Source of the DNA: Elusimicrobiota bacterium
Lineage (GTDB): Bacteria > Elusimicrobiota > Elusimicrobia > FEN-1173
Direction of reading: 5' to 3'
Assembly: GCA_016715645.1 (NCBI GenBank)
Contig: JADJZR010000008.1
Span: 48,241-112,240 of the forward strand
DNA length: 64,000 nucleotides
Below the pieces are notes generated by a model. That model was not told the DNA's origin, searched no databases, and saw nothing but the letters and a program-made list of their open reading frames with translations. The translations under genes and the position numbers were made by a program. Positions 2,251-36,878 of the stretch are shown one piece after another; positions within the stretch are counted from its first letter, which is position 1, and the number at the start of each line of letters is the position of its first letter.

Positions 2251-2612
2251 ATCGGGTTTCAAATTCAACACACCAATCCCCCTCCACCGCCCTGTTCGAA
2301 TCCCTGTCCGAATCGCGGATCTCTGTCCTTTATCTGGCCCGCCGGGCCAAAGAAACCAAGGACATGGCCCTGGCCAAAGAATTAACCGAAAAAGGTCAAT
2401 CGCTCAAAATTGAAATGGCCAGAATTCGCCGAACACTCACTGTCGAATGGACCAAAGAGGCCGCCGCCCTTCTGAAACGCTCAAAAACCGCCCAATCCGA
2501 ACTGGCCAAACATGTGGCGGACGCGGAAAAAAGCGCCCGGAAAACAAAGGCCCTCGCCCGGGCCCTAACCGCTGTGTCAAAGGTCCTTGCGCTCGCGAAA
2601 AAGGTTCTTTGA
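2247..2612 (+). CDS. Hypothetical small alpha-helical protein, paralog B of the duplicated pair
   Basis: About 50% amino-acid identity to ORF 1245..1718, with a near-identical ~70-nt 5' segment. Its stop overlaps the next start (TGATG). Confidence 0.5.
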   Translation: MNRVSNSTHQSPSTALFESLSESRISVLYLARRAKETKDMALAKELTEKGQSLKIEMARIRRTLTVEWTKEAAALLKRSKTAQSELAKHVADAEKSARKTKALARALTAVSKVLALAKKVL

Positions 2613-3838
2613 TGGAATCCACGGACTTTCTCATCGTCGGCGCCGGAATCGTGGGGCTGGCCGTAGCCAATGAGTTACGTCGACGCCACCCCAAAGCCAA
2701 CATCGTCGTTTTGGAAAAGGAAACGGAAGTGGGTTGCCACGCCAGTGGCCGAAACAGCGGGGTGTTGCACTCGGGTATTTACTATTCGCCGGGGACACTC
2801 AAGGCGAAATTTTGCGCGGAAGGCGCCCGCCGAATGTTGGCGTTCGCTAAAGAAAATGGTGTGGCCCATCGCGTGGCGGGGAAAGTGATTCTCGCTGTCG
2901 GACCGGAAGACCTCCCCGGACTGGAGCGGTTGGAACAAAACGCCAAAGCCAACGGGATTCGCGCCGTCCGTTTGTCCGCCCAAACACTCATGGAGATCGA
3001 ACCCCACGCTACGCCAGGAGAAGCGATCCATTGTTTGGACACCGCGGTGGTGGACGCCCCGGCCGTGGTGCAAGCGTTGGCCGAAAAAGTGGAATTAAGC
3101 GGAACTCGTTTTTTCTTTGGCGAAGAGGTGATCGAGGCAGAAGAAACCGCGGTAATAACGCGTTCTGGTCGAAAGTTGAAATTTGAAAAGATGATTAATT
3201 GTGCGGGCGCCCACGCGGATAAAGTGGCCAGGCTGTTCGGCCTGGCCAAGGATCATATTTTGGTTCCCTTCAAAGGGCTCTATTGGAAACTGCGTAATGG
3301 GGCCGACCATTGGGTTCGCGAAAGCATCTACCCTGTTCCGGACCTCAATTTTCCGTTTTTAGGCATTCACCTGACCCGCGGCGTGGGGGGCGACGTCTAC
3401 GTGGGCCCCACCGCCATTCCCGCTTTCGGAAGGGAAAATTATGGACTGCTGGAAGGAATCACCCCTGGCGAAAGCGCTCAAATAATGGGACGATTAACGA
3501 AAATGTATTTCCAAAAAGACCCCACGTTTCGACGACTGGTCAACCGTGAGATGGGTCATTACGTGAAAACCGGTTTTCTCAAAGCGGTTCAACGTTTGGT
3601 GCCCGCTCTTTCGGTGGAAGATCTGGTCCCATCGAACAAAGTCGGCATCCGCCCTCAACTGGTCCGCCGTACCGGTGAACTGGAAATGGATTTCCATATG
3701 GAACAGACCGACAATTCGTTGCATGTGTTGAACGCGATTTCACCGGCGTTCACCTGTTCCCTCGCCTTTGCCGAAAAAATCGTTGACGAGGTGGAGAGAC
3801 AAGGCGGTGAAGTCAAAGAAGAGGTCAAGGTCGCATGA
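2612..3838 (+). CDS. FAD-dependent oxidoreductase, L-2-hydroxyglutarate oxidase (LhgO/YgaF)-like
   Basis: ATG at 2612 (MESTDFLIVGAGIVGLAVANEL, an FAD-binding GxGxxG). CHASGRNSGVLHSGIYYSPGTLKAKFC closely matches the LhgO family. The upstream in-frame extension of ORF 2447 is probably not translated. Confidence 0.65.
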   Translation: MESTDFLIVGAGIVGLAVANELRRRHPKANIVVLEKETEVGCHASGRNSGVLHSGIYYSPGTLKAKFCAEGARRMLAFAKENGVAHRVAGKVILAVGPEDLPGLERLEQNAKANGIRAVRLSAQTLMEIEPHATPGEAIHCLDTAVVDAPAVVQALAEKVELSGTRFFFGEEVIEAEETAVITRSGRKLKFEKMINCAGAHADKVARLFGLAKDHILVPFKGLYWKLRNGADHWVRESIYPVPDLNFPFLGIHLTRGVGGDVYVGPTAIPAFGRENYGLLEGITPGESAQIMGRLTKMYFQKDPTFRRLVNREMGHYVKTGFLKAVQRLVPALSVEDLVPSNKVGIRPQLVRRTGELEMDFHMEQTDNSLHVLNAISPAFTCSLAFAEKIVDEVERQGGEVKEEVKVA

Positions 3839-4467
3839 GAAAAAATAAAAGGCCCGTTTGGAAAAACCCCACCGGTCGTCACGCCATGAGTTTCCTCGTG
3901 AACTTGGAAGAGATTGAAAAAGAGTTCCAGGTGACGAACAAACACAAAAAGCCGCTCTCGCTCGTGGACGGGTTTGCCCAAGCGATGGGCTTGATGGTGG
4001 ACGCCGCGCGCCGGAATAAGAAGCTCATTTTTGTGGGAAACGGGGGAAGCGCCGCGATTGCCAGTCACCAAGCCGTGGATTTTTGGAAGAACGGGGGAAT
4101 TAAAGCCCTGACGTTTAATGACGCAAGTCTTTTAACGTGCCTAGGGAATGACTGCGGTTATGAGAACGTTTTTTCCGAGCCGGTGCGCCGATTCGCCGAG
4201 TCGGGGGATGTGGTGTTGGCCATCAGCAGTTCGGGTCGTTCGCCCAATATTCTCAACGCCGTCACCGCAGCCCGTTCGGTGGGGAGCCGTGTTATTACTT
4301 TCTCAGGATTTACCGGTGACAATCCTCTTCGGAAAATGGGTGACGTGAACTTTTTCGTTCCCGTGCGGGCTTATGGGTTGGTGGAAGTCAGTCATCTCAT
4401 CCTGATCCATGCCATGTTGCGGGAAATCATCTACATCAATCCTCATGTGAAGAAATCGGGATATTGA
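3835..4467 (+). CDS. gmhA: SIS-domain sedoheptulose-7-phosphate isomerase (GmhA-like)
   Basis: Matches the GmhA/DiaA SIS family: KLIFVGNGGSAAIASHQAVDF, VVLAISSSGRSPNILNAV, ITFSGFTG. The ATGA overlaps the upstream stop; an alternative start is the Met at 3886. Confidence 0.65.
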   Translation: MRKNKRPVWKNPTGRHAMSFLVNLEEIEKEFQVTNKHKKPLSLVDGFAQAMGLMVDAARRNKKLIFVGNGGSAAIASHQAVDFWKNGGIKALTFNDASLLTCLGNDCGYENVFSEPVRRFAESGDVVLAISSSGRSPNILNAVTAARSVGSRVITFSGFTGDNPLRKMGDVNFFVPVRAYGLVEVSHLILIHAMLREIIYINPHVKKSGY

Positions 4468-5471
4468 GGAACAATGTGATAAAAAAAGCGGTCGTCACCG
4501 GCGGGTTGGGGTTTATCGGAAGCCACCTTGCGGAAGCTCTATTGGCTCGGGAGATTCAAACGACCATTGTTGACAACGCCTCCACCGGTCGACACGAAAA
4601 CATTCGCACGTTCGCGAACCACCCTCTCCTGACGGTCCTCCAGGCGGACGTGGCTTCTGACGATTTGGCGGGAGGGTTTGGCAACGCCGACGTTGTTTTT
4701 CACTTGGCCGGGTTGGCGGACATCGTTCCTTCGATCCAGCGTCCCATGGATTATTGCCGGACCAACATCACGGGAACGTTGCGTGTTTTGGAAGCGGCCC
4801 GGCAGGCCAAAGTCTCCCGTGTCGTCTATGCCGCCTCCTCGTCCTGCTATGGCCTCCCCGACATTTTTCCAACACCGGAGACCGCCCCCATCCGTCCCCA
4901 ATACCCCTACGCGCTCTCGAAGTGGATGGGCGAAGAGGCCGTGCATCATTGGGGGCGTGTCTACGGTCTAAAAACCACGTCGCTTCGACTTTTTAATGTG
5001 TACGGGCCCCGTTCCCGCACGACCGGAGCCTACGGCGCCGTTTTTGGTGTTTTTCTGGCCCAAAAGCTGGCAGAGAAACCGCTAACCATTGTTGGAGATG
5101 GAACCCAACAGCGAGATTTTATTTATGTCTCAGATGTGGTGGAGGCGTTCCTGGCCGCTGGAGAATCGACTTTGTCAAGGGAAGTTTTTAATGTGGCGGG
5201 GGGAAACCCGGTTGCGGTGAACACGCTGGCCGGTTTGGTGGGAGGTTCTCGGGTGGAAATTCCAAAACGTCCCGGAGAACCGGATGTGACGCACGGGGAC
5301 ATCACAAAAATTAAATCGGCCTTGGGCTGGGCGCCGCGCGTGTCGTTTGAGCAAGGGGTCGCCCGGGTCATGGCGCGTCTGGACGATTGGCGGAATGCCC
5401 CCGTGTGGACCCCCGCGTCGATAGCGGAAGCCACGGCGGATTGGTTTGCCCATTTGGGCAAGGGGAAATAA
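4464..5471 (+). CDS. NAD-dependent sugar epimerase/dehydratase (extended SDR)
   Basis: VVTGGLGFIGSHL Rossmann motif, YxxxK (YPYALSK), typical WcaG-like length. Confidence 0.75.
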   Translation: MRNNVIKKAVVTGGLGFIGSHLAEALLAREIQTTIVDNASTGRHENIRTFANHPLLTVLQADVASDDLAGGFGNADVVFHLAGLADIVPSIQRPMDYCRTNITGTLRVLEAARQAKVSRVVYAASSSCYGLPDIFPTPETAPIRPQYPYALSKWMGEEAVHHWGRVYGLKTTSLRLFNVYGPRSRTTGAYGAVFGVFLAQKLAEKPLTIVGDGTQQRDFIYVSDVVEAFLAAGESTLSREVFNVAGGNPVAVNTLAGLVGGSRVEIPKRPGEPDVTHGDITKIKSALGWAPRVSFEQGVARVMARLDDWRNAPVWTPASIAEATADWFAHLGKGK

Positions 5472-6994
5472 TGGACTCAAAAAAAATTATGGAGTTGGAT
5501 GCGTTGGCACTACAAGTTACGGACTGGAAACGGCAGGGCAAACGGGTGGTGCAGTGCCACGGCGTCTTTGACCTGTTGCACGTGGGGCATATTCGCCATT
5601 TAAATGAGGCCAAACGGTTCGGAGACTATTTAATCGTCACGCTGACCCCCGACCATCTCGTGAACAAAGGCCCCCATCGCCCTGCGTTTCCCCAACATCT
5701 CCGGGCAGAGGTGATGGCGGCTCTGGACGTGGTGGACGGTGTTGCGATCAATCGATGGCCCTCTGCGGTGGAATCCATCGGCCTTCTCAAACCAAACGTC
5801 TACGCCAAGGGGCCGGACTATCGAAAGGCGTCGGACGACGTCACGGGCGGAATTCTCCGGGAAGAAGAGGCCGTCCGCGCGGTGGGGGGCGAAATCCGTT
5901 TTACCGATGACGTGACGTTTAGTTCATCCAGCCTGGTCAATCTCCATTTAGATCTGCTTCCCCCGGAAGTCAAATCGTTCCTGGATGGTTTCCGTAAGAA
6001 ATACACAAAGGACGATATTTTCCGCTACATCGAAAGTCTTAAGGGTTTGCGGGTTGCGGTGGTGGGAGAAACCATTTTGGATGAGTATGTTTATTGTGAA
6101 GCCATGGGGAAATCTTCCAAAGAACCCACTTTGGCTGTACTTCGCCGGTCCCAGGAATTATTCGCGGGGGGGGCTTTGGCCATTGCCAACCATCTGGCGC
6201 AATTCTGCTCGGAAGTAGAGGTGATCACCTATTTGGGCGAACGGGATTCACAGGAAGAATTTGTCCGGAAAAGCCTGAATCCGCGCGTGCGGCTGACGGC
6301 CGTGAAAAAGCCGGGAGCCCCCACCATTGTCAAACGTCGCTACGTGGAGTCGTATCTTTTGTCAAAAATGTTTGAAGTCTATGATATGGACGACGAGGCC
6401 CTGACGGGCATTGCGGAAAATTCACTTTGCCAAGCAATGGAGTCTTCTTTTTCTAAAGTCGATGCGGTTCTTGTGGCCGATTATGGGCACGGTCTCATGA
6501 CGTCTAAGGCGGTGGCCCTGGCCTGTCAAAAGGCGCCTTTTCTGACGGTCAATACCCAGATCAACGCCGCCAACATCGGATTCCATGCCATTTCCCGCTA
6601 TCCCAAAGCGAACCATGTGTGTATCCAGGAATCTGAGCTGCGGTTGGAATACCGAAGTCGCCGGGGCCCCGTCAATGCCATGGTAACCGATCTGGAACGT
6701 CGTCTTGCGTGCGAGCGGATAACGGTGACCCGCGGCAGAGCGGGTATTCTGGTCCATGACCAGAAAGGTGATTTCCATCAATCTCCTGCCTTTGCCGTTA
6801 AGGTTTTGGATCGGATTGGGGCGGGAGACGCGGTTCTTGCGCTCACGTCCCTTTGCGCCGTGGCTGGCGTTCCGCCGGACGTTTCGGCGTTCCTGGGCAA
6901 TCTGGCGGGCGCCCAAGCGGTCACGATCATCGGCAACAAGACTTCCATTGATAAGGCGCTCCTTTTAAAAGCCGCCGAAGCCATGCTGAAATAA
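5471..6994 (+). CDS. hldE: Bifunctional heptose-7-phosphate kinase / heptose-1-phosphate nucleotidyltransferase (HldE/RfaE-like) with reversed domain order
   Basis: The N-terminus is a cytidylyltransferase-fold domain (VVQCHGVFDLLHVGHIRHLNEAKRFGDYLIVTLTPD, the RfaE domain-II signature). The C-terminus is a PfkB/ribokinase-like kinase (DRIGAGDAVLA). ATG at 5471 directly follows the upstream stop. Confidence 0.7.
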   Translation: MDSKKIMELDALALQVTDWKRQGKRVVQCHGVFDLLHVGHIRHLNEAKRFGDYLIVTLTPDHLVNKGPHRPAFPQHLRAEVMAALDVVDGVAINRWPSAVESIGLLKPNVYAKGPDYRKASDDVTGGILREEEAVRAVGGEIRFTDDVTFSSSSLVNLHLDLLPPEVKSFLDGFRKKYTKDDIFRYIESLKGLRVAVVGETILDEYVYCEAMGKSSKEPTLAVLRRSQELFAGGALAIANHLAQFCSEVEVITYLGERDSQEEFVRKSLNPRVRLTAVKKPGAPTIVKRRYVESYLLSKMFEVYDMDDEALTGIAENSLCQAMESSFSKVDAVLVADYGHGLMTSKAVALACQKAPFLTVNTQINAANIGFHAISRYPKANHVCIQESELRLEYRSRRGPVNAMVTDLERRLACERITVTRGRAGILVHDQKGDFHQSPAFAVKVLDRIGAGDAVLALTSLCAVAGVPPDVSAFLGNLAGAQAVTIIGNKTSIDKALLLKAAEAMLK

Positions 6995-7080
6995 GGAGCC
7001 CCTTTTTTTCCTTCCCCTCTTGGGGGAAGGTGCCCCAAAGGGTCGGATGAGGGGAGGAATTTTTTCTTTAAGGAGTTAAA

Positions 7081-8082
7081 ATGGTTCGATTCAAAAAAAT
7101 TTTGGTCACTGGTGGAGCTGGCTATGTTGGTTCGGCCCTTGTGCCGGCCCTGCTGAAAGTCGGCTACACCGTGCGCGCGCTGGACTTGTATTTGTACGGC
7201 GACCCCTTAAAAGACGTCGCAACGAACCCCCAACTCGAACAGGTGAAAGGCGACCTCCGGGACCAGGTTGTTTTAGACAAAGCCGTCCAGGGCTGTGACG
7301 CGGTGATTCACTTAGCGTGTGTTTCCAACGATCCCAGCTTTGAATTGGATCCCGCTCTCGGAAAGTCCATCAACTACGACGCTTTCTTCGGACTCATGAA
7401 GGCCGTGCGAAAAGCCAGGGTTCAGCGGTTGATCTATGCGTCCAGTTCCAGCGTGTATGGTTTGCGGGAAGAACCGGATGTGCGCGAGGAAACCCCCTGC
7501 ACTCCTTTGACAGATTACTCGAAGTACAAGCTGATGTGCGAAGACGCGTTGCGCGCCGACGGCCTGGGCGGAGCGGAATACGTCATTGTTCGACCAGCCA
7601 CGGTCTGCGGCTACGCCCCGCGCATGCGGTTGGACCTTTCCGTCAATATCCTCACCATCCATGCCCTGGTCAAAAAACAGATCACTGTGTTCGGTGGCAG
7701 TCAACTTCGCCCCAACATCAATATTCTGGACATGGTGGACGTCTACAAGCTTTTGTTAGAGGCCCCAAAAGAAAAAATTCAGGGGGACGTTTTTAACGCG
7801 GGGTATGAGAACCTTTCCCTCTCTCGTATCGCTGAGATGGTCAAAAACCAACTCCAAGACCCGACCATCACCATTAAAGTGGAACCCACCAACGATCTGC
7901 GTTCCTATCACGTGAACTCCGACAAAATCGCCCGAATCCTGGGTTTCCGCGCGCGCCATACTGTCGAACAGGCGATTGAAAGCATTCACAAGGCTTTTCA
8001 GGAAGGAAAATTCCAAGACCCTCTGACGAACCCTCTTTATTACAACATCAAAACCATGCAACAGGCGAAGCTCGGGGGCTAA
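7081..8082 (+). CDS. NAD-dependent sugar epimerase/dehydratase (extended SDR)
   Basis: ILVTGGAGYVGSAL, YASSSSVYG, YxxxK (YSKYK). Confidence 0.75.
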   Translation: MVRFKKILVTGGAGYVGSALVPALLKVGYTVRALDLYLYGDPLKDVATNPQLEQVKGDLRDQVVLDKAVQGCDAVIHLACVSNDPSFELDPALGKSINYDAFFGLMKAVRKARVQRLIYASSSSVYGLREEPDVREETPCTPLTDYSKYKLMCEDALRADGLGGAEYVIVRPATVCGYAPRMRLDLSVNILTIHALVKKQITVFGGSQLRPNINILDMVDVYKLLLEAPKEKIQGDVFNAGYENLSLSRIAEMVKNQLQDPTITIKVEPTNDLRSYHVNSDKIARILGFRARHTVEQAIESIHKAFQEGKFQDPLTNPLYYNIKTMQQAKLGG

Positions 8083-8954
8083 TGGCATCTCCGGTTGACA
8101 TCGAAGCGTTGGATCTTAAGGCCTTGGCCCGGACCATCCGAGGCGACGTCATCGATATGTCCCACCGGGCAGAAACAGCCCATCTGGGGGGATCCCTTTC
8201 GGTGGTGGATATTTTGGTGGCGGCGTACTGGGGAGTTCTTTCTTTAGACCCGAAGGACCCCCTCGCCCCCGATCGGGATCTATTTATCTTTAGCAAGGGC
8301 CACGCCATCAGCGCTTTCTATTCTACGCTGGCCCACCGGGGTTTTTTCCCGATCCCCCTGCTGGAAACGTTTGCCGTTTCCGGTGGATCTCTTCCCGAAC
8401 ACCCCAGTCCTTCGTGTGTCCCCGGCCTAGAGTTCGCCACAGGGTCCCTCGGCCATGGGTTACCCGTTGGCCTTGGGATGGCCTGGGCCGCCCGGCGGCA
8501 GGGTCGTCTTTCGCGCGTGTTCGTCGTGATTAGCGACGGAGAAGCCAACGAGGGGTCCGTCTGGGAAGCCGCCCTTCTGGCGCCCGCCCAAAAGCTCGGC
8601 AACCTGGCGGTCATTGTCGATTACAACAAATGGCAAGCCACGGGCCGTAGCCACGAAGTGATGGCCCTTAATCCCCTAAAAGAAAAATGGCAATCCTTCG
8701 GCTGGAACGCGGTGGAGGTGGACGGACACGACATTCCCGCTCTGGTCGACGCTCTGAACAAACATCCCTATCATTCCTCCCAACCGTTGGCGATCGTGGC
8801 CCACACGGTGAAGGGGAAAGGTGTTTCTTTCATGGAAGATGACAACAACTGGCATTACCGCATTCCCACTGCCGATGAGGTCCGCCGGGACCGAGCGTTT
8901 TGTCCAGGAGGCCGAAAATTTGTGGAACTCGGGCCCTGGGCCAACCGGGGGTGA
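8082..8954 (+). CDS. Transketolase, N-terminal (ThDP/pyrophosphate-binding) subunit
   Basis: GHLGGSLSVVDILVAAYW, ISDGEANEGSVWEA and the GDG-like ThDP motif. Split form of about 290 aa. Confidence 0.8.
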   Translation: MASPVDIEALDLKALARTIRGDVIDMSHRAETAHLGGSLSVVDILVAAYWGVLSLDPKDPLAPDRDLFIFSKGHAISAFYSTLAHRGFFPIPLLETFAVSGGSLPEHPSPSCVPGLEFATGSLGHGLPVGLGMAWAARRQGRLSRVFVVISDGEANEGSVWEAALLAPAQKLGNLAVIVDYNKWQATGRSHEVMALNPLKEKWQSFGWNAVEVDGHDIPALVDALNKHPYHSSQPLAIVAHTVKGKGVSFMEDDNNWHYRIPTADEVRRDRAFCPGGRKFVELGPWANRG

Positions 8955-9880
8955 GAAATGCTTTCGCAAGTGAAATAACGGCGCTCGCTAAAAAGGACGA
9001 GCGGGTCGTCCTGGTGTCCGGCGATATCGGGAACCGGTTGTTTGACGAGTTCAAAATCGCAGCGCCCGGCCGGTTCGTCAACGCCGGCGCCGCCGAAGGA
9101 AACATGATCGGTTTGGCGGCCGGGATGGCTTTAAGCGGACTGCGCCCGGTCGTCTACACCATAAACTCATTTCTTACAACGCGCTGCTATGAGCAGATTC
9201 GCGTCGATCTATGCTACCACAACCTACCCGTGGTCCTAGCGGGAGTGGGCGCTGGACTGAGTTACGCGTCCTTGGGGGCCACCCACCATTCTCTGGAAGA
9301 CGTGGCGGCTCTTCGGGTCCTCCCCCGCATGGCGGTGGTTTGTCCAGGCGATCCGTTGGAGGTCCGTCTGGCGTTGCGCGCGGCTCTCCAACAGGAGGGC
9401 CCCGTCTTCATTCGAATGGGCAAAAAAGGGGAACCTCCGGTCCATGTCGAGCCACCCCCTTTTGCCATCGGCCGTGCCATTGTCGTCAAACCGGGAAACA
9501 GAATCTGCTTGCTTGGCAACGGGCACATCCTTTCAATGGTCATGAAAGCGGCCGACATTTTAGAGCAAAAGGGCGTCTCAACCCAAGTTGTCAGTTTTCA
9601 CACCGTAAAACCATTGGACAAAGAATTCCTTCAAGACGCATTCAAGCGGTTTCAGTTGGTGGCGACGGTGGAGGATCACGGCGTCCTGGGGGGCTTGGGG
9701 GGAAGCGTGGCGGAATGGTTGGCGGATCACCCTTCCCCGGCTCGCCTATGCCGGATCGGTACCCCCGACGAATTTTTGATGGAGACCATCGACAACGAAT
9801 CCGCTCGGCATCGGTGTGGCCTCACCCCCGACTCTGTGGCGGCCAAGGCGCTCGCGGCCCTGGCCCCCGAAACGGTTTAA
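8951..9880 (+). CDS. Transketolase, C-terminal (pyrimidine-binding) subunit
   Basis: GTG at 8951 overlaps the upstream stop (GTGA). VRNAFASEITALAKKDERVVLVSGDIG... is a typical split-transketolase C-subunit. Confidence 0.75.
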   Translation: MRNAFASEITALAKKDERVVLVSGDIGNRLFDEFKIAAPGRFVNAGAAEGNMIGLAAGMALSGLRPVVYTINSFLTTRCYEQIRVDLCYHNLPVVLAGVGAGLSYASLGATHHSLEDVAALRVLPRMAVVCPGDPLEVRLALRAALQQEGPVFIRMGKKGEPPVHVEPPPFAIGRAIVVKPGNRICLLGNGHILSMVMKAADILEQKGVSTQVVSFHTVKPLDKEFLQDAFKRFQLVATVEDHGVLGGLGGSVAEWLADHPSPARLCRIGTPDEFLMETIDNESARHRCGLTPDSVAAKALAALAPETV

Positions 9881-10486
9881 ATGCGCGTGGGAATAGATTT
9901 CGACAACACGCTGGTTTGTTGCGCACCCCTCTTTCATCGGGTTGCCCTGGAGCGGGGTCTTGTACCTCCCCATCTGCCCGCCACAAAGGACGCGGTGCGA
10001 AATTACTTGATGGATCTAGGGCGCGAAACAGATTGGACGGAACTACAGGGAACCGTCTACGGTCCACGTCTTTGTGAAGCGCTTCCTTTCCCAGGGGCAA
10101 GGGAGTTTGTGGTTCTGTGTCGCCAAAAAAATATCCCTGTGGGTGTGGTCAGCCATAAGACGCGCCACGCCTTGTGTGGTCCGGCCCACAACCTTCACGA
10201 TGCGGGGTATCGTTGGCTGGAGAGCGCTGGTTTTTTTGACCAGGATGTTATATCACGGGACCAGGTTTTTTTCGAGCCATCGCGAGCGGCCAAATTGAAC
10301 CGAATCCGCGCTTTGGGCTGTTCGCATTTTATTGACGATTTGAGAGAGGTCTTTTCTGAGCCACGCTTTCCCGTTGAAGTAAAAAAGTGGCTATTCGATC
10401 CGGATTCTTCCCAAAAGGGATCGAAGGACACCCGTTCTTTTTCGACCTGGGTCCAGCTTTCTGGGGCTCTCGAAGAAGACTTTTAG
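9881..10486 (+). CDS. HAD-superfamily phosphatase (possible heptose-bisphosphate phosphatase analogue)
   Basis: N-terminal GIDFDNTLV (DxDxT/V HAD motif I). Its start abuts the transketolase stop. Confidence 0.55.
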   Translation: MRVGIDFDNTLVCCAPLFHRVALERGLVPPHLPATKDAVRNYLMDLGRETDWTELQGTVYGPRLCEALPFPGAREFVVLCRQKNIPVGVVSHKTRHALCGPAHNLHDAGYRWLESAGFFDQDVISRDQVFFEPSRAAKLNRIRALGCSHFIDDLREVFSEPRFPVEVKKWLFDPDSSQKGSKDTRSFSTWVQLSGALEEDF

Positions 10487-10487
10487 A

Positions 10488-11534
10488 ATGACGCCCGGTG
10501 AAGTCGCTTCAGCCGTCTCCCGGGCCACGGGCGAGCGTCCCAAAGAGGTCGTTCTTTTAAAAGGCGTCGGGAACAATGTGGTGGCAAAGGTGAACATGGC
10601 CGCTGGTACTCGGGTCGCAAAAATCTATTTTCGTCACCCGGCCGACCCCCGGGATCGTTTGGGAACCGAATATGACATGTTGACGTTTTTGTGGGAGGCC
10701 GGGGTTCGCCGGGTTCCCCAGCCCTATGGGATGTTTCGCGACGACTCTTTGGGGCTTTATGAGTTCATTGATGGAGTTCCGTTGGCTCCCGGCGGCGTCA
10801 CATGGAAAGAGGTAGAACAGCTCATATCGTTTTTGGGGGAAATGTATAATTGCAAGGGTCGTCCAGGAGCGCAGAGACTGCCGACCGCTTCGGAGTATGC
10901 CCCTTCGTTGGCGGATTACCGGGAAAACGTTTCCCGACGATTTCAGCGTTTGCGACAAGGGATCGACCCAAAAATGGAGCCGACAGCAGCCGATTTCGTG
11001 AACGGCCCGCTCTTCCGGGCCCATGAAGACCTGGCCCGTTTTCTGGCGAATTGGTCGAAAGTGGGGATGAATCTTGACGACGTGTTGGATCCAGCCCAGC
11101 GAACGTTAAGTCCGGCTGATCACGGGTTTCAGAACACGCTGGCGCGAAACGGACAGTTGGTGTTTCTGGATTTTGAATACGCGGGGTGGGACGATCCAGC
11201 CCAGGTGATTGCCAACGCCTGCCTGCACCCGGCGGTGCCCATGCCGACGGCTTTTGTTCCTCGATTTGTCGAGGACCTGTCGGAACGGCTGAGGGGAGGG
11301 CTCGCGTTTCGAAGACGTTTACGGTGTCTTTACCCCCTGCTGGCGTTCAAATGGAGTCTCATCATGCTGAACGAGTTTCTTCCCGTAGACCGTGACCGAC
11401 GTGCGTTTACGGGGGCGGATGTGGAGTTGAAAAAAGGAATCCAGTTAAAAAAGTCAATTCTTCAACTGGATAAGGTCAAAGAAGCTCTGGCCGACGATTT
11501 TTTTCTCAAGGAGATGGTTCATGGAACAAATTGA
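10488..11534 (+). CDS. Aminoglycoside-phosphotransferase-fold (APH/ChoK-like) kinase, likely a sugar kinase
   Basis: HGFQNTLARNGQLVFLDFEYAGWDD matches the Brenner HxDhxxxN...D motif of the APH family. Confidence 0.6.
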   Translation: MTPGEVASAVSRATGERPKEVVLLKGVGNNVVAKVNMAAGTRVAKIYFRHPADPRDRLGTEYDMLTFLWEAGVRRVPQPYGMFRDDSLGLYEFIDGVPLAPGGVTWKEVEQLISFLGEMYNCKGRPGAQRLPTASEYAPSLADYRENVSRRFQRLRQGIDPKMEPTAADFVNGPLFRAHEDLARFLANWSKVGMNLDDVLDPAQRTLSPADHGFQNTLARNGQLVFLDFEYAGWDDPAQVIANACLHPAVPMPTAFVPRFVEDLSERLRGGLAFRRRLRCLYPLLAFKWSLIMLNEFLPVDRDRRAFTGADVELKKGIQLKKSILQLDKVKEALADDFFLKEMVHGTN

Positions 11535-12183
11535 TTTTATTCAAGCGCTCAATAAATCGACCAAACGCGACTACGTGGGCCGAGTGACGGAGTTCCCGAA
11601 GCCAGAGGCGGCGAAAATCGCCAAGCAATACGGAAAAGACTATTGGGATGGGGACAGAAAGTTCGGTTATGGGGGATACAAATACGATGGTCGATGGCTC
11701 CCGCTGGCCCAAACCATCGCCAAACACTATGGGATAAAAGCAGGCGACAAAATTCTTGATGTGGGGTGTGGCAAAGGATTTTTGCTTTACGAGTTCACCC
11801 GAGCGGTTCCTGGCGTGCAGGTCGCGGGCATCGATATTTCCACTTACGCCATTGAAAACGCCAAGGAGGAGGTTAAGCCGTTCCTGAAAGTGGGGAACGC
11901 CGTCAAACTCCCCTTCGCAGACAAAACCTTCGATTTTGTCTATTCCAACACGACATTCCACAATCTCCATAACTACGAACTTTTTGATGCGGTAAAGGAA
12001 GTCGAGCGCGTAGGGAAAAAAAACAAATACCTTTGCGTCGAATCCTACCGGAACGACGAAGAAAAAGCCAACTTACTGTATTGGCAACTCACCTGCGCCA
12101 GTTTCTATACCCCCCACGAGTGGGCGTGGTTCTATAAACTGTGCGGATACACAGGGGATTATGGTTTCATATACTTTGAGTAA
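11521..12183 (+). CDS. Class I SAM-dependent methyltransferase
   Basis: ILDVGCGKGFLLYEF (motif I), followed by a Methyltransf_11-like core. Confidence 0.65.
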   Translation: MEQIDFIQALNKSTKRDYVGRVTEFPKPEAAKIAKQYGKDYWDGDRKFGYGGYKYDGRWLPLAQTIAKHYGIKAGDKILDVGCGKGFLLYEFTRAVPGVQVAGIDISTYAIENAKEEVKPFLKVGNAVKLPFADKTFDFVYSNTTFHNLHNYELFDAVKEVERVGKKNKYLCVESYRNDEEKANLLYWQLTCASFYTPHEWAWFYKLCGYTGDYGFIYFE

Positions 12184-12186
12184 CCT

Positions 12187-12261
12187 ATGAAATTCAACGT
12201 CGCCGTCCTTGTCGAGAGCAGGGAGCCTAATGTCATCAAAGATTTTGAGAAACCACGATGA
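12187..12261 (+). pseudogene. 24-codon remnant of an MDR alcohol-dehydrogenase N-terminus (MKFNVAVLVESREPNVIKDFEKPR*)
   Basis: Close match to the N-terminus of the intact dehydrogenase at 13843 (MKFKAAVLVESRNPLVIEELE). It is terminated by TGA, which overlaps the ATG of the next gene. Confidence 0.5.
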
Positions 12262-13712
12262 AGGTCAAACGCGCTCTAAAACGAAATGTTTCCTCCCCTC
12301 CGTCGCTTTTAGAAAATCTGCAGGCTTGGGTGCGTTTAGGGGAGTCTGAAATTTTGGAGTTTAAACGCACGACAAATGAACGGAGAGAGGCTGTTCGCTC
12401 GCTTTGCGCAATGATCAACCATCGAGGGGGACGTGTGTTGTTCGGAGTTTCCTCTGCCGGAGAGATCCTCGGGCAGCAGGTCAGTGATCGCACCATTGAA
12501 GAATTGGCGCAAGAAATCAAGGAGATCGACCCCCCTGTTTTTCCATCCATCGAACGCATTGTCGTTTCCCGGGAGCGGGAAGCAATCGCCGTAACCGTTT
12601 TACCCGGGCCGTCAGGTCCCTACACCTACAAAGGGCGCGCCTATCGGCGCGTGGGGAACGCGAGTCTCGCGATGTCGAAGGATGAATGCAATCGTATTTT
12701 ACTCGAACGATTGCATGGCCAGAGCCGCTGGGAAAATCAGTTGTTGGAAGAATGGTCCGTCAAAGATTTGGACATTGGCGAAATCACGCGGACCATTGAC
12801 GAGTCCGTGCGCCGCGGTCGATCTGAGGATCCAGGCACGCGAGACCCCGAGATTATTCTTCGCGGGCTTGGCCTCATGAAAGGGAAGCGTCTTTTTCGAG
12901 CCGCCGCCGTTTTATTTGGCCGTCGCGACCTCCTCGCAGCGGAGTATCCCCAATGCCTCCTTCGGGTCGCTCGGTTTCGCGGGTCAGACAAGACAGTTTT
13001 CGTTGATAACCGTCAGTTTCAAGGCAACGTGTTTGACTTATTGTCCCATGCGGAGAGATTCCTGCGCGATAATTTGCCCGTCGCGGGGCGCGTGCTCCCA
13101 GGCCTTTTTGAACGAGTGGATGATCCTCTGTACCCTTCTCTTGCCTTGCGTGAATCTCTGGCCAACGCTTTTTGCCATCGGGATTACAGCATGGGGGGCG
13201 GCTCGGTTTCGCTCGCTGTTTATGACGACCGATTGGAGATCACGTCTTCAGGCCCTCTGCATTTTGGGCTCACAGAGGAAATGCTGTTCCTTCCACACGA
13301 ATCCCTTCCCTGGAATCCCCTGATCGCAAGGACCTTCTATCGGCGGGGCATCATTGAATCCTGGGGACGCGGCACTTTGAAAATGGCCGAGTTAATGCAC
13401 GCCGCCGGTCTTCCCCACCCGGAAATTGTTGAGGCCAGTGGATGCGTTATCGTTCGATTCCGACCGAAAGAGAGCCTCCCTCTTCATGCATCGGGGGACT
13501 TAAATGCGCAACAAAAAAATATAATCGCCCTCATCGTGGCCACCCCCATCGGGCTTTCGTTGCGTGACATTCGGAAAGGGATCCCATCCTCTCCGCCTGT
13601 GTGGAAACTGAAAAGGGAACTGGAGACGTTGAAAAATCTAGGCAAACTCGCGACGCGCGGGCGTGGCCTCGGCGCTCGCTGGCTCCTCCGAAAGGAGCCG
13701 AACGCCCCATGA
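12258..13712 (+). CDS. Schlafen/AlbA_2 + HATPase_c_4 + wHTH protein (COG2865), paralog of the gene at 1..1248
   Basis: ESEILEFKR (AlbA_2); ALRESLANAFCHRDYSMGGGSVSLAVYDDRLEITSSGPL (HATPase_c_4); C-terminal wHTH-like region. Confidence 0.7.
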   Translation: MKVKRALKRNVSSPPSLLENLQAWVRLGESEILEFKRTTNERREAVRSLCAMINHRGGRVLFGVSSAGEILGQQVSDRTIEELAQEIKEIDPPVFPSIERIVVSREREAIAVTVLPGPSGPYTYKGRAYRRVGNASLAMSKDECNRILLERLHGQSRWENQLLEEWSVKDLDIGEITRTIDESVRRGRSEDPGTRDPEIILRGLGLMKGKRLFRAAAVLFGRRDLLAAEYPQCLLRVARFRGSDKTVFVDNRQFQGNVFDLLSHAERFLRDNLPVAGRVLPGLFERVDDPLYPSLALRESLANAFCHRDYSMGGGSVSLAVYDDRLEITSSGPLHFGLTEEMLFLPHESLPWNPLIARTFYRRGIIESWGRGTLKMAELMHAAGLPHPEIVEASGCVIVRFRPKESLPLHASGDLNAQQKNIIALIVATPIGLSLRDIRKGIPSSPPVWKLKRELETLKNLGKLATRGRGLGARWLLRKEPNAP

Positions 13713-13715
13713 GCA

Positions 13716-13762
13716 CCAATGGCGCTCCAATGCGCTCCAATGGCGCTCCAATGCGCTCCAAT
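13716..13762 (+). repeat. Tandem repeat, roughly 21-nt unit (ggcgctccaatgcgctccaat) x2, with 10/11-nt sub-periodicity
   Basis: Read directly: ccaatggcgctccaatgcgctccaatggcgctccaatgcgctccaat, immediately 3' of the COG2865 paralog. Confidence 0.85.
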
Positions 13763-13842
13763 AACTTCAGGGGAGCACATCGGACGAAAGTTCCTGACCA
13801 CTTTCAATCCCTCGGTTTTAACTCCAATTATTTCATCCACCC

Positions 13843-14889
13843 ATGAAATTTAAAGCCGCCGTCCTCGTCGAAAGCCGCAACCCCCTCGTCATCGAGGAGC
13901 TCGAAGTCCCGGTCCTAAAATATGGCCAGGTCCTCGTGAAAATTATTTGCAGTGGCATCTGCGGAGCCCAAATCAACGAAATCGATGCCGTGAAAGGTCC
14001 GGACAAATTTCTCCCCCACCTGTTGGGCCATGAAGCGACAGCGGAAGTTGTGGACTGCGGCGAAGGCGTGACCACGGTAAAACCGGGCCAGCGGGTGGTC
14101 TGTCACTGGCGCAAAGGCGCGGGCCTCCAATCCCCCACACCCCAATACAAATCAAAGTTGGGCCTTGTGAATGCCGGTTGGGTGACCACGTTTAGCGAAT
14201 ACTCGGTGGTTTCTGAAAATAGACTAACACCAGTTTCCAGGGATTTGGACCCAGAAATTGGCGCTCTCATGGGGTGCGCCATCACCACAGCCATGGGCGT
14301 CATCAACAACGATGCCCGTTTGGGCATTGGAGAATCGATTGTTGTATTTGGAGCAGGCGGCGTAGGCCTGAGCATAATTCAATTTGCCGCCCTGGTGGGG
14401 GGCTATCCCATCGTTGCGATTGACCTGCATGAAAATAAACTCGAATTGGCAAAGAGTCTCGGCGCAACCCACACGTTCAAAGCCGGGGCCATTGACCTGG
14501 ACGAGGAAATCCGCAATATTGTCGGCACCGCTGGGGCAGACGTGGCCATCGAAAACACTGGGAACGCCGACGTTATTGAGATGGCCTACGCCCTGACAAA
14601 TGGGAAAGGAGGCCGCACGATTTTGGTGGGCGTCCCCCCTGTGACGGCCCGCCGCCCCAGCATCTACACCCTCCCTCTCCATTTCGACAAGGTACTCAAA
14701 GGAAGCGAAGGCGGTCATTGTCGACCCGAATCCGACATCCCGAAACTCCTGAAGCTTTGCCAAGTGGGTCGAGTTCGTTTCAATGGGCTGGTGGGGGTGC
14801 GATATCCGTTGGGTCGAGTCAATGACGCCTTGTTAGATCTTCGTTCTGGGCGTATTCCGGGCCGGTGCCTTCTTATGATGGGGCAGTGA
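13843..14889 (+). CDS. Zinc-dependent medium-chain dehydrogenase/reductase (alcohol/sugar dehydrogenase)
   Basis: GICGAQINE... and GHEATAEVVDCGEGV (Zn ligands); FGAGGVGLS Rossmann motif. Confidence 0.75.
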   Translation: MKFKAAVLVESRNPLVIEELEVPVLKYGQVLVKIICSGICGAQINEIDAVKGPDKFLPHLLGHEATAEVVDCGEGVTTVKPGQRVVCHWRKGAGLQSPTPQYKSKLGLVNAGWVTTFSEYSVVSENRLTPVSRDLDPEIGALMGCAITTAMGVINNDARLGIGESIVVFGAGGVGLSIIQFAALVGGYPIVAIDLHENKLELAKSLGATHTFKAGAIDLDEEIRNIVGTAGADVAIENTGNADVIEMAYALTNGKGGRTILVGVPPVTARRPSIYTLPLHFDKVLKGSEGGHCRPESDIPKLLKLCQVGRVRFNGLVGVRYPLGRVNDALLDLRSGRIPGRCLLMMGQ

Positions 14890-21864: not shown

Positions 21865-22571
21865 TGGTGGATTCAAAAAAAGTCGCTGTTTTGGGATTTC
21901 AAGAAGGAGTTGCCGGTCAGGTGGACTCATGGTTTGAAATGGCCACGGGCCTTCAGATTTCTTGTTTTGTCCTTGAGGCGGATGATTTTCCCCCGATTGA
22001 CGTCGAGGCAGAAAATAGAAAACGTGTTTCCCAGCGAATGGAGTATCCAACAAAAGGCCAGTACAAAGGACGCCCCTTTATTATCGCGCTGGATTGGGCG
22101 AAGCATTTGAAAAGGCTTGGGATATCGAAAGTTCTCCCACTCACTCCGGATAACCGGGTTCGGTTTCATCAATTGGAGGTGTGTCATCAAGAAGGTTTTC
22201 AATTGATTTCCGCTATTCATCCAAGTGTAATCATTCTTCCCGGGGCCACGATCCAACCAGGGGTATGGATTAATGCGGGCAGTATCATCGGATATAAATC
22301 GGAAATTGAGGAAGGCGTCTTTATCAATACGGGCGTGAAGATTGACCACCATAACGTTTTAAAGCGGTGTTGTCAGGTGGACCCCGGCGTGGTAACGGCT
22401 GGGAATGTGACACTTCGGGAGTGTAGCCACGTTCATACCGCCGCCACCCTTATCAATCGTGTTGAAATTGGGGAAGACGCGATCGTGGGGGCGGGGGCGG
22501 TGGTCCTCGATTCAGTTCCGCCAAAAGTGGTCACGGTGGGAGTTCCATCGAAAGTGATTCGCCATGTCTAA
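21864..22571 (+). CDS. Sugar N/O-acetyltransferase, NeuD/PglD family (hexapeptide-repeat left-handed beta-helix)
   Basis: N-terminal Rossmann-like VAVLGFQEG followed by hexapeptide repeats (IGEDAIVGAGAVV). Confidence 0.65.
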   Translation: MVDSKKVAVLGFQEGVAGQVDSWFEMATGLQISCFVLEADDFPPIDVEAENRKRVSQRMEYPTKGQYKGRPFIIALDWAKHLKRLGISKVLPLTPDNRVRFHQLEVCHQEGFQLISAIHPSVIILPGATIQPGVWINAGSIIGYKSEIEEGVFINTGVKIDHHNVLKRCCQVDPGVVTAGNVTLRECSHVHTAATLINRVEIGEDAIVGAGAVVLDSVPPKVVTVGVPSKVIRHV

Positions 22572-24426
22572 GCTAAAAATTGGTTTGAGTTCATTGCTGA
22601 GCAATCATACGACAAAAGACATTTTCCTGCTCATTGGTGTGTATTTCTTAAGCTATGGGTTTATGTTGTTGAATCCGGGTATTTATTGGGACGACTGGTT
22701 TATATCAACACACACTTTGCCAGACCTAATTAGTCATTGGGGAATGTGTGGCGGGAGTTTGTTCATTCGGATTCATCATGGCATTCTCGGTTATGATAAT
22801 GCTGTTTTAATTTTCCGTTTGCTCATCTTCACGGCTTATTTTTTGGGGATGATTTTCTTTTACTTGTTTTTAAAAGAAATAAAAATACTCGGAGGATCAA
22901 AGCCATTTTGGTTATGTCTGCTGATCTCCGTATATCCTGTCAGCCAGGGAAGATTGGCTTTGATTCTAACTTATAATGCTTGGAGTTATTGTTTTTTTGC
23001 CTTAGGTTTGTGGTTGACATTGCTCTGGGTTCGTCGCCCGAACCTTGTATTTCGATGGGGGGCGCTTTTATCCTTTAATCTTTCTTTCTTCACCAATTCA
23101 TTCTTAGTCATTTACGCCGTTGTCCCTCTCCTCTTGCTTGGGGATTCAATTAAAAAATTCCCCAAGAATCTCCGGTCAATATGTATTGATGTATTGAAAC
23201 GGGTTGATTTTTTTGTTCTGCCGTTGTTATTTTGGCTAGCGAGATTGAAGTATTGGTCGCCGGACTCAGGTTCAGGTTACAATGAGATCGTATTCATGCC
23301 ATTACAAGTGCTCTTCATACAATTTACCAAGGCTTTCCATTCTTCATTTTTAGGTGTTTTTGAACTCCTTTTTGGTAGGCTGGACGGGTCACTGTCTCGA
23401 AGTGTGTTGTTCGCAGGCGCTTTCGTGCTATGTTTTAGAGCATTGATGGAAAAAGTGGGGGACACGAAGTGGAAGTTTGTCGCCACTGGATGGGGGCTTC
23501 TCTGTGTCGCCTCCTATTTTTATGTGCTTTACCCGTTTCCATATGTGGATGGATTTCCCGCCTCGGATTTATTTTTAATAATCACATGTCTTTTCGTTTT
23601 CGGGGAAACTTTTGAGACTGAAACCCTTGAGCCTGTTCAAAGGAACGAGGAACTCATGAATTGCGGATTGATACTCTGCGGTGCTTTCCTTTTCCTATTG
23701 GGGGTGTACCCCTACATTGCAGTCTGGAAGGTTCCCCGCCCGGTGGATTTTGATTCGCGTTACGAACTCATCGTTCCGTTCGGCGCTGGTTTTATGGTTT
23801 ATGGAACGGTTTGCCTTGTGGGTTCTCATTTTAAGTTTCGAAAGATTTACAACAAAATCTTATTAAGCACGTTGATCATTTTCTTTGTTGGATTGAATGT
23901 CAGGAGTTTATTTTTGTGGCAGTGTGATTACTACAAACAATGCGCCATTATGGCGCGCCTTCGTGTGATCCCTCCCCCCGTTTTTGATTCAAAGATAGTG
24001 GTGGTTGACGATGAAACAGGTGCAATTAATGCGTGGGGGCGAAAGTATTATCACTATGAATGGGAAGGGTTCATTCGTTTCGCTCTAAATAGTGATGAAC
24101 AGATTGGAACGGACTATAGGAATTTTAAGTGGATGGACTACCGGGGTGTCAGGAGAAAAGGGGGAGAATCAAAATTGATCGTAAGAAACACCTATGGGCG
24201 TCACCATCGACCCTGTCTTATCATCACAGCCCCTCCGCTTTCTCCGTTCGAGGAGCAGGAGAGCTCCCTCTCCTTCCCATCGAGATTTCGAAAGGATTGC
24301 CTGCGCCTCCTGTGGCTCGAACTGTTTTATCCGGAGGATTTCCAGAAAAAAATTGGTCAAATGCTTGATTTGAAATGGATTTGCACGTGTGAAATAAATG
24401 AAAAAAATCGCCATCGTTCAATCTAA
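22564..24426 (+). CDS. Polytopic membrane protein with C-terminal soluble domain; candidate GT-C glycosyltransferase/polymerase
   Basis: At least 11 hydrophobic segments over the first ~450 aa, then a ~170-aa hydrophilic tail. No specific family recognised. Confidence 0.35.
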
Positions 24427-26698: not shown

Positions 26699-27676
26699 AT
26701 GAGCAATAATTCTGTCTATTGTTGCATTGAGCCTGCATGTTTAAAGGGGCGTTTAGCTAAAGGCCAAGAGGGCCTTTCTTGTTGTAACGGACATTTTATT
26801 CCATTTATCCCGTCCACGGATGTCCCCGTTTTTAATTGTGACCCGAAAGATTCAAATGAGTATACGCGTTTAAACGCGGGGGAAATACATGAAAATTCAC
26901 TCCGCTGGCTTTTTTCAACTTTTGGCGACGACGAAGTCAGTTTTAGGGAGCGGCTCATTACTCGGCTGTTTCTAAAAAAAGGGTCTCGGGTGCTGGTCAC
27001 CGGCGCGGGAGCTGGTAACGACTTGCCTTTCTTGATCCGCGCGCTGGAGGGAAAGGGAGAAATCTTTGCACAGGACATCGCGAAGGAAATGATCCTTGTT
27101 GGAATTTCTCGATATAAAAATGATTTCCCTCGTTCTGATGTTAATGTGTATTTTTCAGTTTCCGATGCGACTACTCTTCCTTTTTTAGATGATTTCTTTG
27201 ACTCCGCCTACCATTTCGGCGGCATCAACTTGTTTTCGAATATCAAACGCGGTATCGCCGAGATGAACCGTGTGGTAAAGGCGGAGGGGCGTGTTGTGAT
27301 CGGTGATGAAGGACTCGCCCCCTGGCTTACGCGAACCGAATATGGGGAGATGCTGGTTAAAAATAACCCGCTCTATTCTTGTGCGCCTCCCCTCTCGGCC
27401 ATTCCGGAAACAGCGAGGGCGGTTAATCTTTCTTGGGAATTGGGCAATTGTTATTACATTATTGAATTTCAAGTGTCCAAAACCCCCTTATCGATCAATA
27501 TTGATATTCCACACAAGGGCAAGCGGGGGGGCACCCTTCGGACACGCTACTATGGACAACTGGAAGGGGTTGACCCCAACTTACGCGATAGAATTTATGC
27601 GGAAGCGGAGCGGCAGGGTGTCAGCCGGGTTAATTTCCTTGAATCAATTTTGCGTGCATCCCTTCGGGGGGATTGA
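26699..27676 (+). CDS. Methyltransferase-like protein with N-terminal Cys-rich (Zn-ribbon-like) segment
   Basis: An N-terminal Cys cluster (CCIEPACL...CCNGH) followed by VLVTGAGAGNDLPFL (motif-I-like). The C-terminus is unrecognised. Confidence 0.4.
   Translation: MSNNSVYCCIEPACLKGRLAKGQEGLSCCNGHFIPFIPSTDVPVFNCDPKDSNEYTRLNAGEIHENSLRWLFSTFGDDEVSFRERLITRLFLKKGSRVLVTGAGAGNDLPFLIRALEGKGEIFAQDIAKEMILVGISRYKNDFPRSDVNVYFSVSDATTLPFLDDFFDSAYHFGGINLFSNIKRGIAEMNRVVKAEGRVVIGDEGLAPWLTRTEYGEMLVKNNPLYSCAPPLSAIPETARAVNLSWELGNCYYIIEFQVSKTPLSINIDIPHKGKRGGTLRTRYYGQLEGVDPNLRDRIYAEAERQGVSRVNFLESILRASLRGD

Positions 27677-36874: not shown

Positions 36875-36878
<4 letters not shown>
35628..36878 (+). CDS. Hypothetical protein (possible glycosyltransferase of the O-antigen-locus TIGR04372-like type); family not confidently recognised
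   Basis: One N-terminal hydrophobic segment, 416 aa, no canonical motifs identified. Confidence 0.25.

Follow-up and report, generated by a model that had tools for sequence, protein, structure and literature searches.

We analysed a 64,000-nucleotide stretch of DNA from an Elusimicrobiota bacterium (contig JADJZR010000008.1), referred to below as the window, which carries a gene for a relative of the bifunctional heptose-activating enzyme HldE (RfaE) in which the two catalytic domains stand in the reverse order. An earlier reading of the window (the original prediction) had drawn attention to this gene as an HldE-like enzyme with the nucleotidyltransferase first and the PfkB kinase second. 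The gene and its domains lie at the following positions.

5471..6994, + strand: inverted-order HldE-like gene, 507 amino acids (aa), transferase then kinase, stop codon included
5516..5932 (aa 16-154), + strand: N-terminal cytidylyltransferase-fold domain, from NCBIfam rfaE_dom_II and invariant residues
6029..6943 (aa 187-491), + strand: C-terminal PfkB kinase domain, from NCBIfam rfaE_dom_I, the Foldseek match to HldA and invariant residues

The reversed protein and its two halves

The open reading frame (ORF) at 5471-6994 on the forward strand has 507 codons and no internal stop. Its ATG at 5471 overlaps by one base the TAA of the gene upstream, which encodes a short-chain dehydrogenase/reductase (SDR1), and is preceded by the Shine-Dalgarno-like stretch AGGGG. 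We also considered a longer form starting at a TTG at 5387, for which the homologues give no support. The NCBI databases hold an identical 507-aa protein, from an Elusimicrobia metagenome-assembled genome. Both strings on which the original prediction was built are present in the protein, VVQCHGVFDLLHVGHIRHL at aa 26-44 and DRIGAGDAVLA at aa 447-457.

Several comparisons bear out the order of the domains. Pfam reports CTP_transf_like at aa 30-117 (E-value 1.3e-9) and, after it, PfkB, which spans aa 194-494 (E-value 4.7e-15); these are the only Pfam domains in the 507 aa, and neither a GHMP-kinase nor an NTP_transferase fold was found there. In NCBIfam, the match to rfaE_dom_II covers aa 16-154 and the match to rfaE_dom_I covers aa 187-491. 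The alignment with HldE that had been suggested as a check gave a crossed result. When the HldE protein of Escherichia coli K-12 was used as the reference, its residues 322-453 aligned with residues 6-142 of the query (34% identity) and its residues 13-302 with residues 195-491 (26% identity), i.e. the halves match RfaE domain II and then domain I. The inverted order is not an accident of chance or assembly, because it is conserved across a large family (see below).

The scores of the separate halves identify their closest relatives. The N-terminal half reaches 98.6 bits on the NCBIfam model rfaE_dom_II, against 42 bits on the generic cyt_tran_rel and 40.4 bits on the glycerol-3-phosphate cytidylyltransferase model (g3p_cytidyltrns). 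The C-terminal half reaches 125.5 bits on rfaE_dom_I, and the next family scores 31 bits. The two halves are thus the nearest relatives of RfaE domains II and I, and lie outside the curated families. The identification of the halves in the original prediction therefore stands, and the case that would have spoken against it, an unrelated cytidylyltransferase joined to a generic sugar kinase, does not apply because the RfaE models match best. Structural comparison leads to the same relatives. We obtained an AlphaFold2 model of the 507-aa protein from a 16-sequence alignment (mean predicted local distance difference test, pLDDT, of 84.6) and compared it with the PDB using Foldseek. The best matches are the Burkholderia HldA structures 4e8w and 4e84, with E-values of 3e-22 to 5e-21, while PfkB kinases other than HldA match from 6e-15. 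In sequence comparisons with the PDB, the transferase half finds its best single-domain match in HldC.

The catalytic motifs of both activities are retained. In the transferase half, the 16 sequences, which come from several phyla, share an invariant H37, G39 and H40 in the HxGH motif (aa 37-40, nucleotides 5579-5590) and an invariant K66, G67, R70 and P71 in KGPxRP (aa 66-71). The RTxG motif of alditol and amino-alcohol cytidylyltransferases was not found in the alignment of this domain. In the kinase half, the catalytic GAGD (aa 450-453, nucleotides 6818-6829) has G450, G452 and D453 invariant across phyla, as is the TRG ATP loop, in which T420 and G422 are kept. At aa 386-389 the kinase has (Q/H)ExE where NxxE is expected.

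Distribution and phylogeny of the inverted-order family

We made an exhaustive search of 1.84 billion representatives of clusters at 50% identity, which returned 17,959 matches at E<=1e-3, of which 1,190 reach E<=1e-30. Nearly all of the best 150 matches are full-length and collinear with the query, down to 34% identity, with a few that are shortened or match in two stretches. Hence, the domain order is shared. In a word-indexed search, the top 120 matches all carry PF01467 followed by PF00294. Their names include 'rfaE bifunctional protein ...' (Joint Genome Institute) and 'Bifunctional protein HldE', and at NCBI 'adenylyltransferase/cytidyltransferase family protein' or 'PfkB family carbohydrate kinase'.

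With each GTDB species represented by a single genome, a scan revealed a relative in 476 species. The best 80 of these are represented by metagenomic or otherwise uncultured-organism assemblies and include Elusimicrobiota, Nitrospirota, Chloroflexota, Acidobacteriota, Verrucomicrobiota and Planctomycetota, as well as Omnitrophota, Eremiobacterota, Desulfobacterota, Cyanobacteria, Bacteroidota and others. Full-length members are also encoded on plasmids of two cultured bacteria, with 44% identity in Solidesulfovibrio carbinolicus DSM 3852 (WP_129356083.1) and 42% in Azospirillum oryzae KACC 14407 (WP_149200362.1), under the RefSeq name 'PfkB family carbohydrate kinase' in both. The gene is present in complete genomes too, such as OY969579.1 and OZ252023.1. 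On the S. carbinolicus plasmid pDCAR1 (locus L094, 11076-19582), the gene adjoins a NeuB-family synthase, pseudaminic-acid genes and three radical S-adenosylmethionine (SAM) genes, and the two SDRs that usually accompany the family are absent; this context hints at another use for the activated sugar. Searches of the literature on the inverted order, on clusters of PfkB, cytidylyltransferase and transketolase genes and on archaeal HldE architecture returned nothing relevant. The inverted-order architecture is thus widespread and catalogued, and functionally uncharacterised in the literature.

We inferred neighbour-joining trees for each domain from 24 inverted-order proteins, six canonical sets (HldE of E. 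coli, Azospirillum brasilense, Streptomyces, Paludisphaera and Arthrobacter, and HldA/HldC of Burkholderia) and two outgroup fragments. In the kinase tree, the inverted proteins split from all six canonical kinases in 100 of 100 bootstraps, and the mean identity is 20% between the groups, compared with 36% within the canonical and 40% within the inverted one. The transferase tree has the same split with a support of only 36/100, and a mean identity between groups of 33%. This fits an old lineage of inverted proteins, distinct from canonical HldE. The original prediction went further and proposed an independent fusion of the two domains. The separate lineage agrees with this proposal, given the kinase split and the scores below the family cut-offs, but the trees hold few canonical sequences, and with these an independent fusion and a circular permutation look alike.

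A conserved cassette around the gene

The neighbours of the gene in the window were compared with every ORF of 86 related loci, among which five near-duplicates are kept in the counts. The genes that recur are listed below with the number of loci in which they are found.

2447..3838 (true start probably ~2620), + strand: flavin adenine dinucleotide (FAD) oxidase, L-2-hydroxyglutarate oxidase equivalog by NF008726, domain from aa 60
3835..4467, + strand: GmhA-like SIS isomerase, predicted to catalyse the first step, ketose-phosphate to aldose-phosphate; 48/86 loci
4464..5471, + strand: SDR1, GalE-like epimerase/reductase of nucleoside diphosphate (NDP) sugars, directly upstream and translationally coupled; 74/86 loci
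7081..8082, + strand: SDR2, homologue of Cj1427 (NDP-heptose C4-dehydrogenase), downstream; 71/86 loci
8082..8954, + strand: split transketolase-like enzyme, N-terminal subunit (thiamine diphosphate-binding); 49/86 loci
8900..9880 (true start probably downstream of 8900), + strand: split transketolase-like enzyme, C-terminal subunit; 67/86 loci
9881..10486, + strand: HAD hydrolase with a DxDxT motif, not GmhB-type, usual partner of the APH kinase; 32/86 loci
10488..11534, + strand: APH-family kinase, cassette member; 39/86 loci
11521..12183, + strand: SAM-dependent methyltransferase, cassette member; 49/86 loci
13843..14889, + strand: Zn-dependent alcohol dehydrogenase, cassette member; 36/86 loci

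The usual gene order is SIS-SDR1-[transferase-kinase]-(SIS)-SDR2-(HAD-APH)-TK-TK-MT-ADH, where TK stands for transketolase, MT for methyltransferase and ADH for alcohol dehydrogenase. The isomerase that opens this series scores 93 bits on the gmhA model TIGR00441 (cut-off 209). It keeps Ser55, His61, Asp94, Ser119, Ser121, Ser124 and His180 of E. coli GmhA, which we take, from the GmhA structures, to be the phosphate-binding serines and the metal or catalytic residues.

Some relatives of the gene are fused to the other activities of a heptose pathway. A protein of 699 aa from Patescibacteria (P0137; locus L093, 8001-10100) joins a GmhB-type HAD-IIIA domain to the transferase and the kinase, and a metagenomic protein of 764 aa (P0180) joins the transferase and the kinase to a GmhA-like SIS domain. 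Unfused GmhB-type genes stand in or beside the cassette, less than ~9 kb from the gene, in several loci, and directly adjoin it in L038, L042 and L067. The cassette of locus L091 (5009-12148) encodes a free-standing kinase (47% identity) that falls within the inverted clade, followed by a phosphatase of the GmhB type (133.5 bits, cut-off 149.6) and an NTP_transferase-fold enzyme resembling ManC and HddC; a SIS protein is encoded as well. The cytidylyltransferase-fold domain has apparently undergone a non-orthologous replacement in this locus, which would then provide all four activities of the pathway with the transferase exchanged. Taken together, the SIS protein, the fusions, the GmhB-type neighbours and L091 support a pathway made of isomerase, anomeric kinase, 7-phosphatase and nucleotidyltransferase, in this order. 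We considered whether the HAD hydrolase of the cassette could itself be the GmhB enzyme and rejected this candidate: neither HAD-IIIA nor GmhB models match it, and loci such as L042 carry a GmhB-type gene in addition to the HAD gene. We found no second HldE gene in the 64-kb window.

The two SDRs have different affinities. SDR2 has its best PDB match in 6vo6, which it matches over the full length (E-value 3e-35, 34% identity across 298 columns). A published primer, Cj1427cF918, has a reverse complement that codes for RAFKMMK, the C-terminus of 6vo6, so 6vo6 is Cj1427 of Campylobacter jejuni. Cj1427 is a ping-pong dehydrogenase that oxidises GDP-heptose at C4 and converts 2-oxoglutarate into L-2-hydroxyglutarate (PMC10680097). 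The oxidase encoded at 2447-3838 of the window passes the L-2-hydroxyglutarate oxidase equivalog model NF008726 (379.5 bits, cut-off 299), and SDR2 and this oxidase may form a co-substrate recycling pair in the window; genes with a DAO domain are found in only ~10 related loci. SDR1 is GalE-like, with SSSCYG and YxxxK, and matches the epimerase HldD weakly (108.6 bits), being nearer to GalE-type epimerases. A role for SDR1 as a 4,6-dehydratase was ruled out, as it has no TDE motif.

The split transketolase keeps the thiamine, Mg and catalytic histidine residues, and carries the changes H461G, D469L/N and R520K, which are present in all of the 41 transketolase-like orthologues examined. Given that residues of the acceptor site are altered, the enzyme probably uses an acceptor other than an ordinary sugar phosphate. 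In many loci the place of the transketolase is taken by subunits resembling the E1 alpha and beta subunits of pyruvate dehydrogenase. The transketolase-like gene always comes after the Cj1427-like SDR gene, which suggests that its product acts later, on an NDP-keto-sugar. These patterns suggest a transfer of two carbons onto the 4-keto sugar by the thiamine enzyme. A weak PDB match to the transferase domain of Fom1 raised the question of a phosphonate pathway, which was ruled out for lack of a phosphoenolpyruvate mutase in the cassette.

As a whole, the cassette consists of 8-11 genes (2447-14889 in the window; loci L001-L087, L091 and L093-L095) and occurs in more than 12 phyla. Its members are the SIS protein, SDR1, the inverted HldE, SDR2, the HAD hydrolase, the APH kinase, a transketolase or E1 alpha/beta pair, the methyltransferase, the Zn-dependent alcohol dehydrogenase and sometimes a DAO-domain oxidase. 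At least two forms of the cassette exist, one with the transketolase and one with the E1 subunits, the latter accompanied by two DegT aminotransferases. In most cassettes the HAD hydrolase and APH kinase genes stand side by side, and in L001 (15321-16898, 525 aa) they appear to be fused; neither protein matched an NCBIfam family or, by sequence, a solved structure. Precomputed gene calls from three phyla place the same cassette within glycan loci. In the window, Pfam identifies a dense glycan locus at 16135-36878, with two DegT aminotransferases, two hexapeptide acetyltransferases, at least five SAM methyltransferases, a C-methyltransferase, a WbqC protein, a GT2 glycosyltransferase, an RmlD-like reductase, a fused ABC exporter, an AMP-binding enzyme and a GNAT protein. 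The ORFs at 22564-24426, 27673-28641 and 35628-36878 have no Pfam match. The window also contains, at 73-1248, 1729-2250 and 12258-13712, two HATPase_c_4 'RecG C-terminal' genes and a shortened ORF resembling the DUF1016/YhcG nuclease. The second HATPase_c_4 gene (12258-13712), in which an AlbA_2/Schlafen domain is present as well, seems to have been inserted into the cassette, because it splits the methyltransferase and Zn-dependent alcohol dehydrogenase genes that are neighbours in other loci.

Predicted function, alternatives and known systems

We consider it probable that the protein is a bifunctional sugar-activating enzyme that carries out the two reactions of HldE with its domains reversed, and that it supplies NDP-heptose to a glycan-modification cassette. 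The GmhA-like isomerase would convert sedoheptulose 7-phosphate into heptose 7-phosphate, whose anomeric hydroxyl would be phosphorylated by the C-terminal PfkB domain. A phosphatase would then strip the 7-phosphate; this enzyme would be of the GmhB type in related loci and, here, either the non-GmhB HAD hydrolase or the product of an unlinked gene. Finally, the N-terminal cytidylyltransferase-fold domain would combine heptose 1-phosphate and a nucleoside triphosphate (NTP) into NDP-heptose, destined for the modification cassette in a large surface-glycan locus and not for the core of lipopolysaccharide (LPS). The scheme is built on the observed domain homology, the intact catalytic motifs, the size of the family, the gene context and the natural fusions. 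From these we infer the identity of the substrate, the order of the steps and, most of all, the choice of nucleotide and the configuration at the anomeric carbon.

Several observations weigh against this interpretation. The score on rfaE_dom_II (TIGR02199), 98.6 bits, is below the equivalog cut-off of 181.5, the 125.5 bits on rfaE_dom_I (TIGR02198) are below the cut-off of 345, and the whole-protein HldE model NF008454 reaches 155.5 bits, in two crossed stretches, for a cut-off of 521. With scores so far under the cut-offs, a specificity identical to that of HldE cannot be assumed. In the kinase, the sugar-binding region differs from that of HldE, with NTQxNAANxG in place of IDPKG and DYGHG in place of DYAKG. 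The transferase has not kept the (F/L)xxGxSTT nucleotide motif: FEDGCSTT of E. coli is aligned by MAFFT to DDVTFSSS (aa 146-153), in a region that hhalign stops short of and where aa 149-161 have low confidence in the AlphaFold2 model. The isomerase has the changes E65D and Q172E (E. coli numbering) in 37 of the 37 GmhA-like orthologues examined, and the aldose that it makes may therefore not be D-glycero-D-manno-heptose. The 64-kb window has neither a GmhB-type phosphatase nor a GT9 heptosyltransferase, and we found no experimental paper on the inverted-order family in the literature.

Some of these differences bear on the suggestion, made in the original prediction, that the reversed enzyme uses another nucleotide or anomer, such as GDP-D-alpha-heptose. 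The beta pathway of heptose activation relies on a PfkB kinase and a cytidylyltransferase fold, while the alpha pathway relies on a GHMP kinase and an NTP_transferase fold. Both folds of our protein are those of the beta pathway, and GDP-D-alpha-heptose is not favoured. The broader form of the suggestion fared better. The DDVTFSSS segment, with its TFSSS loop at aa 149-153, the replacement in L091 by an enzyme of the NTP_transferase fold, a class that generally uses alpha-sugar 1-phosphates, and the resemblance of SDR2 to Cj1427, whose substrate is GDP-alpha-heptose, all leave room for it. At the position of the arginine associated with NTP promiscuity (STTR5), the inverted family has an invariant Phe/Tyr. 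A nucleotide or anomer other than that of ADP-beta-heptose is thus possible.

Beyond the activation of the heptose, we tentatively raise the idea, to which we give limited credence, that the cassette encodes an undescribed pathway shared by many phyla. In such a pathway, C4 of NDP-heptose would be oxidised by the Cj1427-type dehydrogenase, with the oxidase regenerating 2-oxoglutarate in the window, and a two-carbon unit would be added to the 4-keto sugar by the transketolase- or E1-like thiamine enzyme. The product, a C-branched or chain-extended nine-carbon sugar, could then be methylated, phosphorylated or aminated. The NDP-heptose at the start of the pathway might itself differ from ADP-beta-heptose in nucleotide or anomer.

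The same chemistry could also be applied to another sugar, for example an octose or a heptose epimer, derived from a non-standard ketose or aldose phosphate that the transketolase-like enzyme and the variant isomerase would provide, in analogy with the octose pathway of lincomycin. The frequency of the thiamine-dependent enzyme (67/86 loci), the fixed E65D and Q172E, the kinase sugar-binding segments unlike those of HldE and the family scores, all below equivalog cut-offs, speak for it. However, the transketolase-like subunit lacks His461 and Asp469, which bind the acceptor in canonical enzymes, and many loci have in its place pyruvate-dehydrogenase-E1-like subunits, which do not make ketose phosphates. 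Moreover, the position of the thiamine enzyme, always after the Cj1427-like SDR, suggests a later step, and some loci carry the core genes without it. We regard this substrate as unlikely.

Another alternative is a plain equivalent of HldE that makes ADP-D,D-heptose, turned by SDR1 into ADP-L,D-heptose for the inner core of LPS, in which case the domain order would be meaningless. The homology to both HldE domains, the weak HldD match of SDR1 (108.6 bits) and the outer membrane of Elusimicrobia are compatible with it. Yet the window has no GT9 heptosyltransferase, the gene lies within a locus of the O-antigen or capsule type and goes together with a modification cassette that includes a Cj1427-like dehydrogenase, SDR1 is nearer to GalE-type enzymes than to HldD, and canonical HldE forms a separate clade. 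In addition, the family is found in Chloroflexota/Dehalococcoidia, Actinomycetota and Patescibacteria, which are not known to have LPS. These arguments make a role in the LPS core improbable.

Finally, we find it very unlikely that the two domains act consecutively with no phosphatase in between, the kinase on a non-anomeric hydroxyl and the transferase to form a CDP-sugar or CDP-alditol phosphate for a teichoic-acid-like polymer (CDP-glycerol, CDP-ribitol and CDP-6-glucitol being the model products): the family profile does match the whole chains of ethanolamine-phosphate cytidylyltransferase and HldC in the PDB about equally well (74.2 and 74.1 bits), most cassettes have no GmhB-type gene nearby and a Zn-dependent alcohol dehydrogenase is among their members, but per domain HldC scores 73.8 bits against 50.6 for ethanolamine-phosphate cytidylyltransferase, the rfaE_dom_II model gives 98.6 bits where that of glycerol-3-phosphate cytidylyltransferase gives 40, a bisphosphate intermediate is favoured by the GmhB fusion P0137 and by the variants that contain GmhB, L091 swaps the domain for an NTP_transferase-fold enzyme, a class whose substrates are sugar 1-phosphates, and the flanking SDRs are of the NDP-sugar type.

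We conclude that the protein belongs to a large, domain-swapped sister family of HldE, and that it most likely provides a conserved glycan-modification cassette with an NDP-heptose. Bacteria build surface glycans from heptose nucleotides, which also strongly activate ALPK1, an innate immune sensor of vertebrates. The family would represent a fourth, domain-swapped architecture, present in hundreds of species and more than 1000 clusters, mostly in uncultured phyla and including groups without LPS. Given this breadth, nucleotide-activated heptoses may be made much more widely than current models hold, perhaps in other chemical forms. As members are encoded on plasmids of A. oryzae KACC 14407 and S. 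carbinolicus DSM 3852, the enzyme and its final sugar are directly testable. The family receives only generic names in current annotation and deserves a model of its own.

The closest known system is canonical HldE, which has the same two folds and catalytic motifs and, like the inverted enzyme, is associated with a GmhA-type isomerase. The domain order is the opposite (26% identity in the kinase, 34% in the transferase), and canonical HldE genes sit with LPS-core genes, while the gene of the window is part of a glycan-modification cassette. In Burkholderia, the two activities belong to separate proteins: HldA (PDB 4e84) is the best fold match of the kinase half (E-value of about 1e-22, template modelling score of 0.77-0.85 on the target, 23-24% identity) and HldC (PDB 5x9q) is the protein that the transferase half matches best when single domains are compared by sequence. 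According to two commentaries on Tang et al. 2024 (PMC11573728 and PMC11461863), heptose nucleotidyltransferases fall into three types: monodomain, kinase/transferase and isomerase/kinase/transferase. The overall reaction predicted for the inverted family is the same as for these types, and the family also has tri-domain relatives. The arrangements transferase-kinase, GmhB-transferase-kinase and transferase-kinase-isomerase are not among the three types given in those commentaries.

The Cj1427 pathway of C. jejuni follows the same logic as the cassette, with an NDP-heptose that is then oxidised at C4 by a Cj1427-type SDR, and it has an O-methyltransferase too. The heptose is activated in C. 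jejuni by a GHMP kinase and a guanylyltransferase of the NTP_transferase fold. The cassette of the window has in contrast PfkB and cytidylyltransferase folds, and adds to this scheme a thiamine-dependent enzyme and an L-2-hydroxyglutarate oxidase.

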